Positions 8,861 to 63,901 of a DNA stretch of 64,000 nt are shown here, one piece after another. The notes under the pieces are model-generated. The model saw only the letters and a program-made list of their open reading frames with translations, ran no database searches and was not told the origin of the DNA. Source of the stretch: a virus (taxonomy: Duplodnaviria; Heunggongvirae; Uroviricota; Caudoviricetes); the IMG/VR virus record IMGVR_UViG_3300027749_005140, positions 64,001 to 128,000 of that record, one strand, 5' to 3'. The position numbers and the translations under genes were made by a program. Position 1 is the first letter of the stretch, and each line of letters opens with the position of its first letter.

Positions 8861-9055
8861 TTAGTTTTCTAATACCTTATCGATATTAGCTTCTCTAACT
8901 TTAGCTTTTACAATACTTGGACTTTGCATATCCTCGTCTGTAATTCCTAATTGAGTTTTGATGATATTTAATAAATATCTTTCATTCTCCCATTTGTAGT
9001 TTGGTGCTTCTGACATATCTTCTGACATCATTCCACCACTAAAACTTTTGTTCAT
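8861..9055 (-). CDS. Small hypothetical protein with the C-terminal R-x-x-x-I-x-x-V-L tag
   Basis: Ends VREANIDKVLEN. Confidence 0.65.
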   Translation of the reverse strand: MNKSFSGGMMSEDMSEAPNYKWENERYLLNIIKTQLGITDEDMQSPSIVKAKVREANIDKVLEN

Positions 9056-15156: not shown

Positions 15157-15477
15157 ATGTGGGTAAAAATTGACGACGAAGTATTTCATGTCGAGGATAT
15201 AAGTGTACAACTTTCTATTTCTAAACATGCCACTATTTATCTGGATTTAGACATTCAGAACAATAAACACTACTACGACTTTTTTATAGATAAATATGAG
15301 AAGGTTAAGAATTTCACAATTGAACATACTAAATATATTGCAAAGGGCTGTCGTATAAAAACTATTGATATAGTTTTTAACTCAAAGTTAAATCTAAACA
15401 TCTACTGTGAACATATTGATACTGATGTATCTGAAAGAAGAGATTCTATCATTGAACAAATTTTAAAAGAAAAGTAA
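15157..15477 (+). CDS. Hypothetical protein with the C-terminal tag
   Basis: Ends ERRDSIIEQILKEK. Confidence 0.6.
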   Translation: MWVKIDDEVFHVEDISVQLSISKHATIYLDLDIQNNKHYYDFFIDKYEKVKNFTIEHTKYIAKGCRIKTIDIVFNSKLNLNIYCEHIDTDVSERRDSIIEQILKEK

Positions 15478-15532: not shown

Positions 15533-17638
15533 ATGGAGATAAACAAAAACTTACTTACGAAAACACTTGACATTAAAGCTTCTCTAGAAGATGATGACGA
15601 TGATGACTACAACAAATTCGGAGGTGGTAACGGTAAAAAATCTGACACTAAATCTAAAACTCCGGTATTAGATACTTACAGTCGTGATTTAACCAAATAT
15701 GCGGAAGAAGGTAAACTTGATCCTATTGTAGGTAGAGATAAAGAAATCGAAAGAGTTTCTCAAATTCTTTCAAGAAGAAAGAAAAATAATCCTATGTTAC
15801 TTGGTGAAGCAGGAGTTGGTAAATCTTCTATCGCAGAAGGATTAGCACTTAGAATCGCTCAACGAAAAGTTAGTAGAATCTTATTTGACAAAAGAGTTGT
15901 TATGTTGGATCTAGCTTCTATGGTTGCGGGTACTAAATACAGAGGACAATTTGAAGAAAGAATCAAAGCTCTTATGGCAGAGGTTGAAGATGATAAATCT
16001 ATTATTCTTTTTATTGATGAAATTCACACTATGATTGGTGCCGGTGGTTCAAGTGGTTCTATGGATGCTTCTAATATGTTTAAACCTGCTTTAGCAAGAG
16101 GTGAAATCCAAATCATTGGTGCAACAACACTTGATGAGTATAGAAAACATGTTGAAAAAGATGCTGCATTAGAAAGACGTTTTCAGAAAGTTATTGTTGA
16201 ACCTGCTACTGCAGAAGAAACTATACAAATCTTAACAAACATAAAAGATAAGTATGAGTCTCATCATAACGTAACTTACACTGAAGAAGCAATTAAAGCT
16301 TGTGTTGATTTAACTGTAAGATATATGTCTGATAGACACTTACCAGATAAAGCTATCGATGCGTTAGATGAAGCTGGTGCAAGAGTACACATATCTAACA
16401 TAGTAGTTCCTAAAGAAATTACTGATGTAGAACAAAAGATCATCGAAATCAAAGAAAAGAAAAATGATGTAATCAAACGTCAGAAGTATGAAGAAGCTGC
16501 TAAATTGAGAGATGTTGAAAAACAATTAAATACTCAATTACAAGTAGCTAAAGAAAGATGGGAAGAAGAAACTTTGAAAAACAGACAATTAGTAAGTGAA
16601 GATAATGTAGCTGAGGTTGTTTCTATGATTACTGGTATTCCAGTTCAGAAAGTAAATCAAAGTGAAAACAAAAAACTTTCTAAAATGTATGAAAACATTG
16701 CGGGTAAAGTTGTTGGACAAGATGATGCTGTTAAGAAAATCATCAAATCTATCCAAAGAGGTAGAGTTGGTATGAAAGATCCTAACAAACCAATCTTTAG
16801 TGGTATCTTAATTGGTAACTCTGGAGTTGGTAAAACAGAATTAGCGAAACAATTATCTAAGTATTTGTTTGAATCAGAAGATTCTTTAATCAGATTAGAT
16901 ATGTCTGAGTATATGGACAAAATCTCTTTAACAAGAATTCAAGGTGCCGCTCCTGGATATGTTGGATATGATGATGCGAACGTATTAGATAAAATAAGAA
17001 GAAAGCCTTATTCAGTTATTCTTTTAGATGAGATTGAAAAAGCTCATCCGGATATATTCAATCTTTTCTTACAGATGTTAGATGAAGGACATATTACAGA
17101 TTCTCACGGTAGAAAAGTTAGTTTTAAAAACTGTGTAATCTTAATGACTTCAAATGTTGGTACTAAAGTTGTTAAAGAATTTGGTGCTGGTGTTGGATTC
17201 TCTACCAAAACTAAAACAGATAAGAGAGAAGATGATATAAAAGGTATCTTAGAAAAAGAGTTGAAGAAAAAATTTGCACCTGAATTTATCAATAGATTAG
17301 ATGAAATCATTTACTTTAGAGATTTAGGTAAAGAAGAAATAATGAAAATTGTTGAACTTGAATTAAGAAAAACTTTAGGACGAGGTTTAGAGATTGGATT
17401 TACTTTAGAAGTGTCTGATGTGTTGAAAGAACATTTAGTTGAGATTGGTTATGATCCTCAATTTGGTGCTCGACCTTTGAAAAGAGCAATTCAACGAAGT
17501 ATCGATGATGCAGTGACTGAATTTATTATTGAAAGTGAACCAAAAGAAGGTACTACTTTAGTACTTGATTATGATGTTGAAAATGATGTAACAACAGTCA
17601 ACTTGAAAAAGAGAAAGAAAATAAAAAAAGAAGAGTAA
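15533..17638 (+). CDS. clpC: ClpC-type AAA+ unfoldase lacking the N-terminal Clp-repeat domain
   Basis: LDPIVGRDKEI, GEAGVGKS, FIDEIH, GATTLDEY, LPDKAID; UVR-like coiled coil QKYEEAAKLRD; NBD2 GNSGVGKT, LLDEIEKAH; VGF ClpP-binding loop. Confidence 0.9.
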   Translation: MEINKNLLTKTLDIKASLEDDDDDDYNKFGGGNGKKSDTKSKTPVLDTYSRDLTKYAEEGKLDPIVGRDKEIERVSQILSRRKKNNPMLLGEAGVGKSSIAEGLALRIAQRKVSRILFDKRVVMLDLASMVAGTKYRGQFEERIKALMAEVEDDKSIILFIDEIHTMIGAGGSSGSMDASNMFKPALARGEIQIIGATTLDEYRKHVEKDAALERRFQKVIVEPATAEETIQILTNIKDKYESHHNVTYTEEAIKACVDLTVRYMSDRHLPDKAIDALDEAGARVHISNIVVPKEITDVEQKIIEIKEKKNDVIKRQKYEEAAKLRDVEKQLNTQLQVAKERWEEETLKNRQLVSEDNVAEVVSMITGIPVQKVNQSENKKLSKMYENIAGKVVGQDDAVKKIIKSIQRGRVGMKDPNKPIFSGILIGNSGVGKTELAKQLSKYLFESEDSLIRLDMSEYMDKISLTRIQGAAPGYVGYDDANVLDKIRRKPYSVILLDEIEKAHPDIFNLFLQMLDEGHITDSHGRKVSFKNCVILMTSNVGTKVVKEFGAGVGFSTKTKTDKREDDIKGILEKELKKKFAPEFINRLDEIIYFRDLGKEEIMKIVELELRKTLGRGLEIGFTLEVSDVLKEHLVEIGYDPQFGARPLKRAIQRSIDDAVTEFIIESEPKEGTTLVLDYDVENDVTTVNLKKRKKIKKEE

Positions 17639-34303: not shown

Positions 34304-34756
34304 ATGATTTATATAGCACATAGAGGAAATACCAATGGTAAGTTTGAATCTTATGAGAATGAACCAAATTATATTGATATGGCAATTAAAAAAGGATTTG
34401 ATGTAGAGATTGATATTTGGTGTATTGATAATCTAATATATCTTGGTCATGATAAACCACAATATGGTATAGACTTTGGATGGTTACGTGATAGAATAAC
34501 AAAATTGTGGATACATTGTAAAAATTTAGAAGCAATGATTCTATTAAAGAATTGTGGATATGATACTAATTATTTTTGGCATCAAGAAGATGACTTCACT
34601 ATTACTTCAATGGGTTATTTCTGGACATATCCTGGTAAAGAATTAAGTAGTAACTCGATTGCAGTGATGCCAGAGACTAAAGAATTTAAAGACATTGAAA
34701 AGGCATACGCAATATGTTCTGATTATGTAGAAAAAATAAAATTAGATAGTGAATAA
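34304..34756 (+). CDS. Glycerophosphodiester-phosphodiesterase-like mini TIM-barrel protein
   Basis: IAHRGN, EN, DVEIDIW, LGHD, WIHCKN, ICSDY. Confidence 0.7.
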   Translation: MIYIAHRGNTNGKFESYENEPNYIDMAIKKGFDVEIDIWCIDNLIYLGHDKPQYGIDFGWLRDRITKLWIHCKNLEAMILLKNCGYDTNYFWHQEDDFTITSMGYFWTYPGKELSSNSIAVMPETKEFKDIEKAYAICSDYVEKIKLDSE

Positions 34757-34796
34757 AAAAACAGGTGCAGGTGGTGAAATTTATGGGGATAACTAT

Positions 34797-34958
34797 ATGA
34801 ATCAACCTCTAGGAAAATCATATGGTATTGATATAGAAGCTAAAATGACACAAATGTTGGCTGACGAACTAACAAAATCAATTGATGCAGACATCATGAA
34901 AGAACTATTCAGTAAGAGAAATAAAAGAAAAATTAAGATTGAAAATCTTTTTAAATAA
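34797..34958 (+). CDS. Small protein carrying a gp23 major-capsid-like segment plus the C-terminal tag
   Basis: YGIDIEAKMTQMLADELTKSIDADIM; ends RKIKIENLFK; ATG start at 34797. Confidence 0.55.
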   Translation: MNQPLGKSYGIDIEAKMTQMLADELTKSIDADIMKELFSKRNKRKIKIENLFK

Positions 34959-45722: not shown

Positions 45723-45896
45723 TTATTTTAATATGGCTTTTATTTTTTCTTTTCTTTCTAAATTTTTTGATAAACTTACTTTTAATTCAAACCATTCACC
45801 TTTTGAGTAAATACTATTTATACGAGTATATGTATCATAATACAAGTCACCATCATTAGGATTACTTGGTTTAGTATCAAATGATAATCTTGACAT
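45723..45896 (-). CDS. Small protein (57 aa) with the C-terminal tag, not in ORF track
   Basis: MSRLSFDTKPSNPNDGDLYYDTYTRINSIYSKGEWFELKVSLSKNLERKEKIKAILK; TAATG overlap with upstream gene. Confidence 0.6.
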   Translation of the reverse strand: MSRLSFDTKPSNPNDGDLYYDTYTRINSIYSKGEWFELKVSLSKNLERKEKIKAILK

Positions 45897-46321
45897 TAAA
45901 AATTATTATAAATCATTTTTGTTAATTTAGGATCATTAAAAGTATTACCATTAAAGAAAAGATAAATACCTTTTAGTCTCTTCACTTCTAAAATTGCCAA
46001 TTCTTCTGTTTCAAATATATTCAACATAATAGGAACTGATTTTAATTTACCTTTTTCAAATATTCTATGTTCTCCTTTAATATCATTAAAATATCTAAGT
46101 TCGATTATACTAAAGTATCCAGTTTCTACTTGATGTATCTTATATTTTATAACATAAGGTTTATTACTATACTCTTTTGTAAATATAAGAGCATCAATAC
46201 ATTCTAACATAACTTCATCTGTATGTAGATTTCTAATATTTTCCAAATCTCTTTTAGACTTTGATTGATTTATACTACACCAAAATAAACTATCTAATGT
46301 AGTTACTTGTAAATTAAACAT
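45896..46321 (-). CDS. Hypothetical protein
   Basis: TAATG overlap with dnaJ. Confidence 0.55.
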   Translation of the reverse strand: MFNLQVTTLDSLFWCSINQSKSKRDLENIRNLHTDEVMLECIDALIFTKEYSNKPYVIKYKIHQVETGYFSIIELRYFNDIKGEHRIFEKGKLKSVPIMLNIFETEELAILEVKRLKGIYLFFNGNTFNDPKLTKMIYNNF

Positions 46322-47391
46322 TAAAAATTACCAGCATTTTTTAGTTTTTCCAGTATTGCTTTTTGTTCAAGGTTGATAGACTTTGGTATTCTAATTCTAA
46401 TATTTATTACTAAACTTCCCATACCTTCGTGAATATCTGGAATTCCTTTACCATTTACTCTTATAATCTTACCGTGTTCTGTACCCGGTTCAATAGCTAC
46501 TATTACATCACCGTGTGGTGTTTTAACCGATACATTGTTACCAATTATTGCATCAATAACTGAAATCTCTACATCAACTATAATGTTACCACCTTCTCTT
46601 CTAAAATATGGCTCTCTAATTTCATCAAAGACAATATATAAGTCTCCCGGAACACCATTGACTACATGATTTCCAAATCCCGCCATACTCATTTGCATTC
46701 CATTTCCAACACCTTTAGGTATTTCAACATCAACGGTTTGTTCTTTTAAAGTTGTTCCATGTCCGTGACAAACATTACACTTGTTTGCTATTTGAGTTCC
46801 AGAACCATTACAGTCAGGACAACCCGAAACATTTCTAATTTGTCCAAATGGTGTATTTTGTACTACAGTTCTTTGTCCAGAACCATTACACGGAATACAA
46901 GTTCTTACATCGGAACCACCTTTACCATTACAAGGATTACAAGGTTCATGTCTTTTATACTTTAATTTCTTTGTAGCACCATTGATTATTTCTTCAATAG
47001 TTAAAGTAACTTTTATTCTTAAATCAGATCCTTTTGATTGTCTTTGTTGTTGTTGTTGTTGTCTTTGACCACCACCAAATATATCTCCAAATTGACTGAA
47101 TATATCATCCATATTGAAACCGTGACCTCTTCCACCACCGAATGGATTTCCACCTCCGAATGGGTTACCTCCACCATCTGCAGATCCGAATCTATCAAAA
47201 TTAGATTTCTTTTCTGGATCAGAAAGCACATCATAAGCTTCTGCAGCTTCTTTAAATTTTGTTTCTGCTTCTGGATTACCTGGATTTTTATCAGGATGCC
47301 ACTTCATTGCCATTTTACGATAAGACTTCTTAATCTCATCTTCTGATGCTGTTTTATCAACACCTAGTACGTTATAATAATCTTTTGCCAT
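46321..47391 (-). CDS. dnaJ: DnaJ co-chaperone (type I)
   Basis: J-domain HPD, G/F-rich region, four CxxCxGxG-type repeats, C-terminal domain. Confidence 0.95.
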
Positions 47392-47394
47392 ATT

Positions 47395-47709
47395 TTATGT
47401 TAATATTTTTTCTAATTTTATATCTCTATATATTTGTTTGGTTGTATCTGTCAGTCTAATACTTACCCATCTATTATATCTTATAATGAACTCAGTATTA
47501 CTTATCATTGAAGACATAATTGGCATCTCATCAATTATATCTTTGAATATAGTTTCTGCATCTTGTATCATCCAATTTTCTATTTCTGATAATCTTTTAC
47601 AGAAATAATCCATAAATGGGGTAGCAGTATCAATAACGTTACCTAGATAAATATCAGAGTTAAACCCCTGTGGAGCGCCTTCTGATATTTGTACATACCA
47701 ATTAATCAT
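47395..47709 (-). CDS. Hypothetical protein with the C-terminal tag
   Basis: Ends IYRDIKLEKILT. Confidence 0.6.
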   Translation of the reverse strand: MINWYVQISEGAPQGFNSDIYLGNVIDTATPFMDYFCKRLSEIENWMIQDAETIFKDIIDEMPIMSSMISNTEFIIRYNRWVSIRLTDTTKQIYRDIKLEKILT

Positions 47710-48223
47710 TTATTATTCTCTTTAAATTTTTATCTCTTGTTGCCAATTTCATATCAGCATCAACTGTTTCTGAATTATATGCTATATGGAATAAACCTGC
47801 AATATAATTATCAACTATAAGTTGTAGTGTTTCTTGTGTTCTATCTAAATTATCAAATATCTCTAATTTATTTGAAGACTTTGGTATAATTAAAACCAAA
47901 TAATCTAAAAATTCATCTATATCAAATAATAATTCAAATAATTGTAACCTTTCTTTTTTTAACATAGAAGGTGGAGTAACATAAACTTTACCCCACACTC
48001 TTCTAATTGTCGGTAGAATAAAATCTAGTAGATCATCATCACCATCATACAAATTTCCTTGAAATTCAAATCCTTTAAATAAGTAAAGTTTCTTATCAAT
48101 AACATATTCTAATAAATCTCTAAATTCAGATGTATTTTTAATACCTTGACACAACGTATCAAGAATTATTTCTCGATACGATGGGTTTTGATTTATTTCT
48201 AATATGGAAGGTTTAGTATTCAC
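47702..48223 (-). CDS. Hypothetical protein with a weak gp23-like segment and the C-terminal tag
   Basis: FILPTIRRVWGKV; ends TRDKNLKRIIND. Confidence 0.55.
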   Translation of the reverse strand: MNTKPSILEINQNPSYREIILDTLCQGIKNTSEFRDLLEYVIDKKLYLFKGFEFQGNLYDGDDDLLDFILPTIRRVWGKVYVTPPSMLKKERLQLFELLFDIDEFLDYLVLIIPKSSNKLEIFDNLDRTQETLQLIVDNYIAGLFHIAYNSETVDADMKLATRDKNLKRIIND

Positions 48224-48675
48224 TATTTTCCTAATACAACTTTTGGATATCTAAAAGGTTTACCATTTAATGTATAACCTTTAGTGACTACATCTATTAC
48301 TTTTTTAGCACCTGCTTCAGTTATACTAATAACTTCGTGTAACTCATCATCATAAGTTTCAGTTTGAATTGGTTCAATACCTTGTGACTTTAAGAAAGTT
48401 TCTAATTTTTGTGCGATTAGTAAAACTCCTTTATCAACTTTATCCATTGATTTCAAAGCCAATGTAACATCATTATCCATATCAATAACAGATGATAACA
48501 TTTTAGTTTTTGTGTTTAATACTAACTCTTCTTTATCTTTCTGAACTCTTCTTTTGTAGTTTTCAAAATCTGCATAAAGACGTAAGTATTTGTCCTCGGA
48601 CTCTTGTAGTTTTTGTTCTACTGTTACTTCAACAATAGTTTCTTCTAAAATTTCTTTTTGTTCTTCGTTTTCCAT
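48223..48675 (-). CDS. grpE: GrpE nucleotide exchange factor
   Basis: YLRLYADFENYKRR, HEVIS, VV-x-KGY-x-LNG...R-x-PKVVL. Confidence 0.9.
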   Translation of the reverse strand: MENEEQKEILEETIVEVTVEQKLQESEDKYLRLYADFENYKRRVQKDKEELVLNTKTKMLSSVIDMDNDVTLALKSMDKVDKGVLLIAQKLETFLKSQGIEPIQTETYDDELHEVISITEAGAKKVIDVVTKGYTLNGKPFRYPKVVLGK

Positions 48676-51104: not shown

Positions 51105-52997
51105 ATGGCAAAAGATGTAATCATCGGAATCGATCTTGGAACCACTAATAGCTGTGTAGCAGTTGTTGAAGGTGGAGAACCAATCGTTATTTCAAATTCA
51201 GAAGGTAAAAGAACAACACCTTCAGTTGTAGGATTCACTGATAAAGACAGAAAAGTTGGTGACCCTGCGAAAAGACAAGCAGTTACAAACCCTGAAAAAA
51301 CTGTTTACTCAATAAAAAGATTTGTAGGGAAAGACTTTTCATCTTGTACAGATGAAGTAACAAGAGTTCCTTACAAAGTAGAAAAAACTGGCTCAAATGT
51401 ACCTGGTGTTAGAATTGACGACAGAGTATATACTCCACAAGAAATCTCAGCAATGATTCTTCAAAAGATGAAGAAAACTGCAGAAGATTACTTGGGTTAT
51501 GAAGTAACTAGAGCAGTTATTACCGTTCCTGCTTACTTCGGTGATGCAGAAAGAACAGCAACAATCGAAGCAGGAGAAATCGCTGGTTTGAAAGTTGAAA
51601 GAATTATCAATGAACCAACTGCGGCTGCTTTAGCATATGGTTTAGATAAGAAAAACACTGAATCTAAAATTTTAGTATTTGACTGTGGTGGTGGAACTCA
51701 CGACGTGTCTGTATTAGAAATTGGTGATGGTGTTTTTGAAGTAAAATCTACTGATGGTGATACTCACTTAGGTGGTGACGACTTTGATAATGAAATCATT
51801 ACTTGGATGGTAGAAGAATTCAAATCTGAAAATGGTATGGATTTATCAAAAGATGCTATGGCATTACAAAGATTAAAAGAAGCTGCTGAGAAAGCGAAGA
51901 TTGAATTATCTTCTTCTACAACAACTGATATTAATCTACCTTACATCACATCAAGAGACAATCAGCCTTTACACTTTGTTAAACAGTTAACTAAAGCGAA
52001 ATTTGAACAAATGACTAGTTCATTAGTTAAAAGAGCTATTGATTGTGCAAAGTCTGCTCTTAAAAGTGCTAAATTAAAACCATCTGATATTGACGAAGTT
52101 ATCTTAGTTGGTGGTTCTACAAGAATTCCTGCTATTCAAGATGCTATCGAATCATTCATTGGTAAGAAAGCAAACAAATCTGTGAACCCAGATGAAGTTG
52201 TTGCGTTAGGAGCAGCTATTCAAGGAGCAGTTTTAACTGGTGGTATTTCAGATGTATTACTTTTAGATGTAACTCCTCTTTCACTTGGTATTGAAACAAT
52301 GGGTAGCGTATTTACAAAATTGATTGATGCAAATACTACTATTCCTACAAGAAAAAGTGAAACATTCTCTACTGCCTCAGATAATCAATCATCAGTGGAA
52401 ATCCACTGTCTTCAAGGAGAAAGACCGATGGCAAGAGATAACCGTTCTTTAGGTAGATTCCATTTAGATGGTATCCCACCTGCACCAAGAGGTGTTCCCC
52501 AAGTTGAGGTGATTTTGGATATCGATGCTAACGGTATACTTTCTGTAACCGCGAAAGATAAAGCTACTGGTAAAGAAAACAAAATCCGAATTGAAGGTGG
52601 TTCTCAGTTGACTAAAGAGGAAATTGAGAACATGAAGGCAGAAGCTGAAGCTAATGCAGAATCTGATAGAATTGAAAGAGAAACAGTTGACAAACTTAAC
52701 GGTGCAGACAACTTAATCTTCCAAACAGAAAAACAAATTAAAGAGTTTGATGAAAAACTATCAGAAGAAGACAAGAGAGCTTTAGGTATAGACCTAGAAG
52801 AATTGAAAAAAGCTTATGCTGATAAAAATGTTGATGCAATTGACGAAAGTTCTAAAAAACTAAGTGAATCATGGCATGCAATCAGTACTAAATTGTACGA
52901 ACAATCTCAAAATGAACCTGAGCAAACTAACGAAAGCTCAGATGATAATGTTGAAGATGTAAGCTTTGAGGAAGTTTCTGATGAAGAAACTAAGTAA
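51105..52997 (+). CDS. dnaK: Hsp70 chaperone DnaK
   Basis: [57 protein letters not shown]. Confidence 0.97.
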
Positions 52998-61758: not shown

Positions 61759-61857
61759 ATGGGTCGTTATTGTCCCGTATGGTTTGATGAAAGAGAATTA
61801 GAGTTTGTAAATAAAGATGATGAACGAGATTATAAACTCAAAAAGTTATTAGGATAA
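61759..61857 (+). CDS. Small protein (32 aa) consisting largely of the C-terminal tag, not in ORF track
   Basis: MGRYCPVWFDERELEFVNKDDERDYKLKKLLG. Confidence 0.5.
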   Translation: MGRYCPVWFDERELEFVNKDDERDYKLKKLLG

Positions 61858-62292: not shown

Positions 62293-62320
62293 TAAAAGAG
62301 GACTATTTGTCCTCTTTTTT
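62293..62320. terminator. Bidirectional terminator
   Basis: AAAAGAGGAC-tattt-GTCCTCTTTT between convergent genes. Confidence 0.8.
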
Positions 62321-62773: not shown

Positions 62774-63187
62774 TTATATTTTAATTATTTCTACCCCTGC
62801 TTCTCTTAAAAACTCTACACCAGTTATATCTTTGTAATCTTCGTGATAAACTAATCTTTTAATTCCTGATTGAAGAACTAATTTAGAACAATCTCTACAC
62901 GGAGAATGTGTTTGATATAATGTTGCACCATCACAAGATTGACCGTGTTTAGCACATTTTAAGATAGCATTTGCTTCTGCGTGAATAACAAACCAATTAG
63001 TTTCATCATTAGTCTCACAGCAGTTATCAAACCCTGTCGGTGTTCCATTGTAACCATCTGATACAATCATACCATTTTTTACAATTATGGCTCCTACTTG
63101 TTTTCTAGTACAATGTGAAAGTGTTGCCCACTCGTGAGCCATATTTAGATATACTTTATCGTATCTTTCTTGTTTTTCCTTTTCCAT
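62774..63187 (-). CDS. dCMP deaminase (ComEB-like)
   Basis: SHC-x-R-x-QVGAIIV, GYNG-x-P-x-G, HAEANAI, SPC-x2-C. Confidence 0.9.
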   Translation of the reverse strand: MEKEKQERYDKVYLNMAHEWATLSHCTRKQVGAIIVKNGMIVSDGYNGTPTGFDNCCETNDETNWFVIHAEANAILKCAKHGQSCDGATLYQTHSPCRDCSKLVLQSGIKRLVYHEDYKDITGVEFLREAGVEIIKI

Positions 63188-63357
63188 TTCATTATTCTTT
63201 TAATTTTACCAATACGTCTATGTTTTCTGAGTATCTTATGAAACTCTTCATAAGTTTCTTTTGAAGTAACAACATAATTAGCAGAACCTCTTATAGAAGC
63301 TCTACTAATCTCATTTGCTGCTTTACTTATCTTACTAATTAAAGATCGATTATCCAT
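63145..63357 (-). CDS. Small protein carrying a gp23 major-capsid-like segment plus the tag
   Basis: LISKISKAANEISRASIRGSANYVVTS; then RRIGKIKRIM; start moved to ATG 63357. Confidence 0.55.
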   Translation of the reverse strand: MDNRSLISKISKAANEISRASIRGSANYVVTSKETYEEFHKILRKHRRIGKIKRIMKWKRKNKKDTIKYI

Positions 63358-63901
63358 GAATTTTATCAATCTGATGTAAATCCAAAGTCAATGGTGTTTT
63401 TCTACCAAAGATTGAAACTGCTAGAACTACTTTTTGATCTTCAACTTTCTCAACGGTCGCTTTCATTGTAGTGAAAGGTCCTTCGTTTATCATAACTTCT
63501 TCACCAACAATATAAGAAAGTGTTGATTCTTTAGTCATTGATTCAGTATGTCTACCAATCATTCTATTTACTTCTAATTCAGTAAGTGATTTAATGTCAC
63601 CATTTCTTTCTGTTAAGAAACCGGCAACTCCTTTAACACCTTTTAAAAAGTATTTAAGTTCTCCTAATGAATTAGTTTCCATAAAGATATATCCAGGTAA
63701 CATAATAGTTTCTTTCTGAACTTTCTTACCATTTTTCAAGTAGAAAATCTTTTCAAGTGGAACAATTACTTGTCCTACTTTACCAATAAGATCTCCATTC
63801 TCTGCTTCTTTTGTAAGACGCTCTGCTACTGATTTTTCGCGGTTTCCAGCGGTGCGGACCACATAAAAGCTCATACCTTGTGTATGTTTTGTATTTTCCA
63901 T
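63350..63901 (-). CDS. nusG: NusG transcription elongation factor
   Basis: NGN domain FYVVRT-x-GNRE...PGYIF...VAGFL; KOW domain GEEV-x-I-x-EGPF...VSIFGRKTP. Confidence 0.85.
   Translation of the reverse strand: MENTKHTQGMSFYVVRTAGNREKSVAERLTKEAENGDLIGKVGQVIVPLEKIFYLKNGKKVQKETIMLPGYIFMETNSLGELKYFLKGVKGVAGFLTERNGDIKSLTELEVNRMIGRHTESMTKESTLSYIVGEEVMINEGPFTTMKATVEKVEDQKVVLAVSIFGRKTPLTLDLHQIDKIHG

Follow-up and report, generated by a model that had tools for sequence, protein, structure and literature searches.

A mini-gene in the 64,000-nucleotide stretch of phage DNA analysed here (the window) encodes a small protein in which a conserved block of the T4-type major capsid protein gp23 is joined to a C-terminal tag. 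It is a real gene under purifying selection, and its relatives among huge phages carry whole series of such tagged capsid fragments. This design, a conserved capsid block plus a lineage-specific tag, is real, selected and undescribed, and its function is putative; we tentatively suggest that the mini-protein serves as bait for host factors that recognise capsid protein. The features are collected in Table 1.

Table 1. Mini-gene, neighbouring genes and other tagged or capsid-like ORFs (window coordinates)
Feature	Position	Strand	Remarks
70-aa mini-gene	63145..63357	-	capsid A-domain block + variable linker + C-terminal tag
gp23-like block, residues 4-35	63253..63348	-	Pfam Gp23 222-253; T4 gp23 from residue 351
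15-16 bp inverted repeat within core-motif codons	63276..63310	-	kept in 12 close orthologues
Tag R-x-x-K-I-x-x-I, residues 48-55	63193..63216	-	common to many unrelated small proteins
13-residue basic tail of mini-protein	63145..63187	-	present in some orthologues only
nusG	63350..63901	-	upstream neighbour of mini-gene in orthologues examined
dCMP deaminase	62774..63187	-	downstream neighbour of mini-gene
Second capsid-like ORF	34749..34958	+	Gp23 profile 160-196, E 1e-3; spine helix; 28.2 kb away
Tagged small ORF	8861..9055	-	no capsid match
Tagged small ORF	15157..15477	+	no capsid match
Tagged small ORF	45723..45896	-	no capsid match
Two adjacent tagged small ORFs	47395..47965	-	no capsid match
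32-aa tagged ORF	61759..61857	+	hardly beyond tag itself

The original prediction had placed an ORF with gp23-like residues at 63145-63357, and such an ORF is found there on the minus strand with the quoted residues present (ATG at 63357, stop at 63145). Residues 4-35 of its product match positions 222-253 of the Pfam Gp23 profile (PF07068; E = 1.4e-4), with a score of 21.8 bits that lies below the Pfam gathering cut-off of 24.4 and a match that covers 32 of the 376 profile positions; the mini-protein also matches the PHROG 138 major head protein (E = 1.7e-4). Individual matches to Gp23 (E <= 0.01) were obtained for 43 of the 58 family members (best E = 5.5e-9), so the proposed homology is borne out by the profile searches. 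The top PDB matches of the family profile are to residues 351-389 of T4 gp23, in the A domain (E = 0.013), which confirms the T4 sequence cited in the prediction. In 2000 shuffles of the segment, none scored as high as the real one against either of the two capsid proteins used. Distant members match T4 gp23 through the helix at 381-387, whose residues 381 and 387 lie in the A domain at the subunit interface (PMC9546572), whereas the likeness of the subfamily in the window stops at about residue 33. That the likeness is due to chance, or the ORF spurious or broken, would fit the sub-threshold score of the single sequence, but this vanishingly improbable reading is already refuted by the family-wide Gp23 matches, the shuffle test, the selection on the gene and the orthologues, which are intact and in synteny at identities as low as about 35%.

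The mini-gene shares its first 8 nt with the 3' end of nusG and its last 43 nt with the beginning of the dCMP deaminase gene. The basic tail is probably a by-product of read-through, as most orthologues terminate right past the tag. The contig is 132 kb long, has a CheckV completeness of 43% and is without a full capsid gene. Matches to the complete 642-kb phage LR756502 were found for 87 of its 163 ORFs of at least 50 aa (median identity 47.5%), mostly collinear over the 340-505 kb region, and the source is a giant freshwater phage of the Mahaphage type. The largest genomes of the study to which LR756502 belongs were placed in the Mahaphage clade, with Bacteroidetes as predicted hosts (PMC7162821); from clade membership alone, the uncultured host of the contig phage would be a member of the Bacteroidetes. 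A promoter scan gave a result at chance level. Contigs from four freshwater metatranscriptomes span the mini-gene, but they span its neighbours too, and DNA carry-over is possible. A terminator-like bidirectional hairpin (62294-62318) lies between the converging run from nusG to a thioesterase gene and a 124-aa ORF. The window also holds a full chaperone set, consisting of a phage ClpB/C-type ATPase, DnaJ, GrpE and DnaK (15533-17638, 46321-48675 and 51105-52997).

Our searches recovered 33 and later about 97 clusters of homologues (51-81 aa), and most orthologues are 57-61 aa long. In two close loci, six distant ones and LR756502, the mini-gene comes immediately after nusG or is separated from it by a single gene. 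In distant relatives a gene of 250-270 aa is inserted after nusG, in which HNH-like H-H and C-x-x-C motifs can be seen by eye. A weak search for longer forms returned one NusG fusion, one 195-aa protein with an N-terminal extension and one capsid protein at E = 10; the NusG fusion, in frame with the mini-protein in metagenome record P0106, may be real or an assembly error.

Purifying selection on the mini-gene is evident from a pooled dN/dS of 0.33 (p = 2e-15) over ten non-overlapping pairs, which share no sequence yet are not fully independent on the tree. The pairwise values mostly exceed those of nusG, and the constraint is therefore moderate. At short range the core, linker and tag all give 0.29-0.36, so that the core is not visibly more constrained, although its dS is lowered because of a hairpin in the core codons. 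The gp23-like residues are kept in the homologues, and the core motif of the family is I-x3-S-x-RGSANY-x3-S; this motif is lost in the LR756502 orthologue. Column conservation in the family follows that in diverse capsid proteins (Spearman 0.68, p = 6e-5) and falls on the capsid-like positions L6, I10, A14, I17, G24, Y28 and V30, whereas S21 and S25 are near-invariant in the family and poorly or not conserved among capsid proteins.

The kept residues trace a hydrophobic helix face and a turn that are likewise conserved in capsid proteins, and these seven capsid-like positions probably form a packed, mostly buried face of the block. A partner that encounters capsid protein before it is folded or assembled would therefore fit better than one that reads a surface epitope, and the role of epitope mimic put forward in the original prediction is not supported. 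AlphaFold predicts two helices, at residues 3-22 and 33-69, joined by a loop that spans the core motif (mean pLDDT 82, pTM 0.35), and the mini-protein is thus modelled as two helices without a defined tertiary fold. A fold search returned generic long helices only (best Z 5.3), the ESM Atlas gave no usable match and NCBIfam no match, and PADLOC gave a single weak match to one family member only. Co-folding of the fragment with the P and A region of a foreign capsid protein scored 0.01, which counts neither for nor against an interaction.

The hairpin in the core codons has a predicted energy of about -17 kcal/mol, which is reached by at most 1% of synonymous recodings. No two-sided compensatory change was seen among the 12 close orthologues, and distant orthologues are without the hairpin. 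It is possibly a site of mRNA processing or pausing. The hairpin was rejected as the cause of the conserved serines, because the peptide motif stays where the hairpin is absent.

The tag is a property of the genome rather than of the capsid fragments. The pattern R-x-x-K-[IL]-x-x-[IL] closes 16 ORFs of the contig, both capsid fragments included, and in LR756502 it is found on 126 of 1076 ORFs with a strict pattern and on 182 with a loose one that admits some false positives; the matches in LR756502 cluster within about nine residues of the C-terminus, and most tagged proteins are without capsid sequence. The original prediction had taken the tag common to the two capsid-like ORFs as a sign that they belong together. 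Since at least 12% of the genes in a complete relative end in it, the tag does not speak for a connection between these two ORFs in particular; that the likeness of the mini-protein to gp23 is unlikely to be due to chance holds through the Gp23 matches, the shuffles and the selection, but not through the tag. Synonymous codons in the tag vary freely at background usage and I and L interchange, so it is a peptide motif and unlikely to be a DNA element. One tagged mini-protein of LR756502 (320919, plus strand, 71 aa) resembles, in its body, the UVR motif of a 707-aa Clp-type ATPase encoded by the same phage (E = 8e-5).

T4 internal proteins carry an N-terminal capsid targeting sequence (CTS) that is cleaved and common to many unrelated small proteins. 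The tag resembles it as a short terminal motif on many unrelated small phage proteins; it differs in being C-terminal, and the N-terminus of the mini-protein is without a CTS motif. About 64 ORFs of LR756502 begin with a motif of the type M-K-x-L-K-x-F-x-x-F-x-E, similar to the T4 sequence, and this set shares one member with the 126 C-tagged ORFs, where about seven would be expected. N-terminal motifs of the CTS-like type occur in the window as well (5390, 11319, 17654, 53834 and 54399).

Within the contig, Gp23 matches are confined to the mini-gene and the ORF at 34749-34958, and further capsid-fragment ORFs are found in its relatives. The complete relatives have at least five tagged fragments, spread along the capsid protein. 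In LR756502 these correspond to a P-domain strand, the spine helix, the A-domain block, the strands that follow it and a C-terminal block. Besides a capsid gene of 566 aa, the 476-kb genome G011 (97% complete) contains six capsid-like pieces, of which four are short and end in the tag, and in another related record a spine-helix fragment directly follows the mini-gene orthologue. The 735-kb LR756501 contains five capsid fragments, the A-domain block included, with a different tag, D-P-Y-G-E-E-x-W, which closes at least 41 ORFs of that genome and none in LR756502 or the contig. A family of such genes, as had been proposed, therefore exists. That the fragments make up one shared epitope is unlikely, because those of the relatives are spread along the protein and cover nearly every conserved capsid block. 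Detection favours conserved blocks, so less conserved ones may be copied as well. Longer capsid paralogues of 160-260 aa are also present near to or away from the capsid gene (LR756502 234417 and 241135, and two loci of G011), and some longer paralogues bear the tag internally rather than at the end.

The mini-protein is homologous to gp23, yet it is no capsid protein. T4 gp23-type major capsid proteins (PF07068, PHROG 138, HK97 fold) have 450-600 residues, whereas the mini-protein has 57-70, is homologous over about 32 A-domain residues and is too short for an HK97 fold with its P and A domains and E loop; they are encoded in a head module with scaffold, protease and portal, whereas the mini-gene lies outside, after nusG, and its product is tagged. 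Nor is it a CTS protein or Gol. Host proteins can read a short conserved capsid stretch alone, as in Gol/Lit/EF-Tu and CapRel (PMC3014915, PMC9712102), and the mini-protein likewise contains a short conserved capsid stretch. However, Gol comes from the first quarter of gp23 and lies within the capsid gene (PMC3014915), whereas the mini-protein corresponds to T4 residues 351-389, a different block, in a stand-alone gene with its own selection; Gol, moreover, activates defence through the Lit protease and EF-Tu. According to a recent preprint (bioRxiv 10.64898/2026.01.04.697583), Lit and CapRel read short capsid motifs, and the sensors Avs7, Avs8 and Avs10 engage the A domain, the domain that the mini-protein copies, at its hexon/penton interface. 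These Avs sensors are described there as wrapping the whole capsid fold, which they need, over 3,700 square angstroms, and the passages on them mention no phage decoy. In a literature search with thin coverage of subscription journals we found nothing on the tag and no paper on tagged capsid fragments, and no library family corresponds to them either.

Our preferred reading, put forward tentatively as a possibility, is that the mini-protein acts during infection as a bait or decoy, aimed at host factors that recognise capsid proteins broadly. Its N-terminal helix and loop, which copy the conserved A-domain block of T4-type capsid proteins, would bind whatever the same block binds in the capsid protein; the likeliest partner may be a host factor of broad specificity that recognises capsid protein while it is nascent or unassembled, such as an immune sensor, a protease or a chaperone. 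The amphipathic tag may be a docking motif that a large group of small proteins of this phage have in common, and it would bring the complex to a shared hub, where it would be sequestered or degraded and for which the phage ClpB/C-type ATPase and DnaK/DnaJ/GrpE are candidates. With this chaperone set a degradation hub is possible; a link of the tag to these or any other proteases or chaperones is conjectural. The bait reading is supported by the selection, by conservation that tracks the capsid's with R23, N27 and S32 kept, by the fact that two lineages, each with an unrelated tag of its own, have repeatedly captured conserved capsid blocks, by a tag that is free in its synonymous codons and nearly excludes the CTS-like motif, and by the existence of host sensors of capsid protein. 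It is weakened because 30 residues do not offer the whole fold that Avs sensors wrap, because Gol turns defence on instead of blocking it, because dN/dS is even across core, linker and tag, because the likeness of the subfamily ends short of the 381-387 helix and because the LR756502 orthologue is without the core motif. It is a doubtful extension of this reading that the whole tagged library of capsid blocks in huge phages, many of them of foreign form, consists of baits, by which a sensor or a competitor capsid would be caught and delivered by the tag to the hub.

A somewhat doubtful alternative sees the mini-protein as an exapted relic, in which an ancestral or captured capsid piece acquired a tag and was retained for a purpose other than recognising capsids, as a helical tag carrier or a new binding site; its foreign likeness would then be a retained ancestral state. 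The near-invariance of S21 and S25, the even constraint along the gene, the many tagged proteins without capsid sequence and the decay of the motif in LR756502 agree with this, and so does a 250-aa capsid paralogue of the phage's own that reads S-R-K-G-P-A-N at the block, an older form of the motif that thus existed in the lineage. Against it, the family's conservation pattern follows the capsid's, and numerous distinct conserved blocks of the capsid protein turn up as tagged genes in two lineages that differ in their tags, while a like origin from other own proteins was seen only for the UVR motif and a doubtful Nudix case in a single-sequence search of limited reach. The core may have been captured from other phages or retained from an ancestor. 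The phage's own capsid type, deduced from colinear relatives, reads E-G-R-[VI]-G-P-A-Q-[YF] at the block (relatives fetched and G011), and R23, N27 and S32 of the mini-protein family, which represent the wider T4-type form, are replaced in the 80 capsid genes of this clade that were fetched.

This difference bears on two further explanations. The mini-protein may be a weapon against co-infecting T4-like jumbo phages, a reading we think unlikely, in which the fragment would swap into or cap a folding competitor capsid, so that head assembly is blocked or the capsid is marked by the tag for destruction, and the own capsid would be spared because it has diverged at the block. Its model is provided by P4 Sid, PICI Cpm and Tab, small satellite or prophage proteins that target virion assembly in another phage; unlike the mini-protein, they are not tagged copies of capsid segments, and no homology to them was seen. 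The window fragment scores 84 against an AT-rich clade of 592-aa foreign capsids and 55 against its own clade, and 95 of 99 family members score higher against the foreign one, but the pattern used to fetch the foreign set was derived from the mini-protein family, which inflates and biases both comparisons. Less biased is G011, where four of the five short fragments prefer foreign capsids (own versus foreign: 31 vs 74-86, 43 vs 73-91, 54 vs 69-80 and 57 vs 78-88) and three of these four, with margins of 15-55 points, are independent of that pattern. The apparently buried position of the kept residues would also suit fragment complementation. Several fragments of LR756502 and LR756501 are, however, closer to their own capsid, and the same signal arises from likeness to a family consensus. 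It is very unlikely that the mini-protein instead modulates the phage's own head assembly, as a folding helper or in the control of timing or size. Its first helix does match the own-clade capsid (Q-R-x-L-x-x-K-I-x-x-A), some orthologues and other fragments score best against their own capsid, and some fragments of LR756502 and G011 are no more than about 15 kb away from the capsid gene; the mini-gene, however, is surrounded by nusG and genes of nucleotide metabolism, in LR756502 and G011 about 275 kb separate it from the capsid gene, and the core departs from the invariant own-clade sequence at the mini-protein's best-kept positions.

Capsid protein is a main trigger of bacterial immunity, and we found no description of a phage counter-measure built from capsid fragments. 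This analysis adds a selection test of the family, a comparison of two tags in complete genomes and a contrast of own and foreign capsids within one genome. If the fragments are baits, they would identify which capsid surfaces are read by Bacteroidota hosts or by competing phages, and the tag would point to a hub that serves more than one in ten genes in the largest phages. Whatever the mechanism, the block-plus-tag design has been selected, with two tags in two lineages, and it can be tested with synthetic genes of 60 residues.
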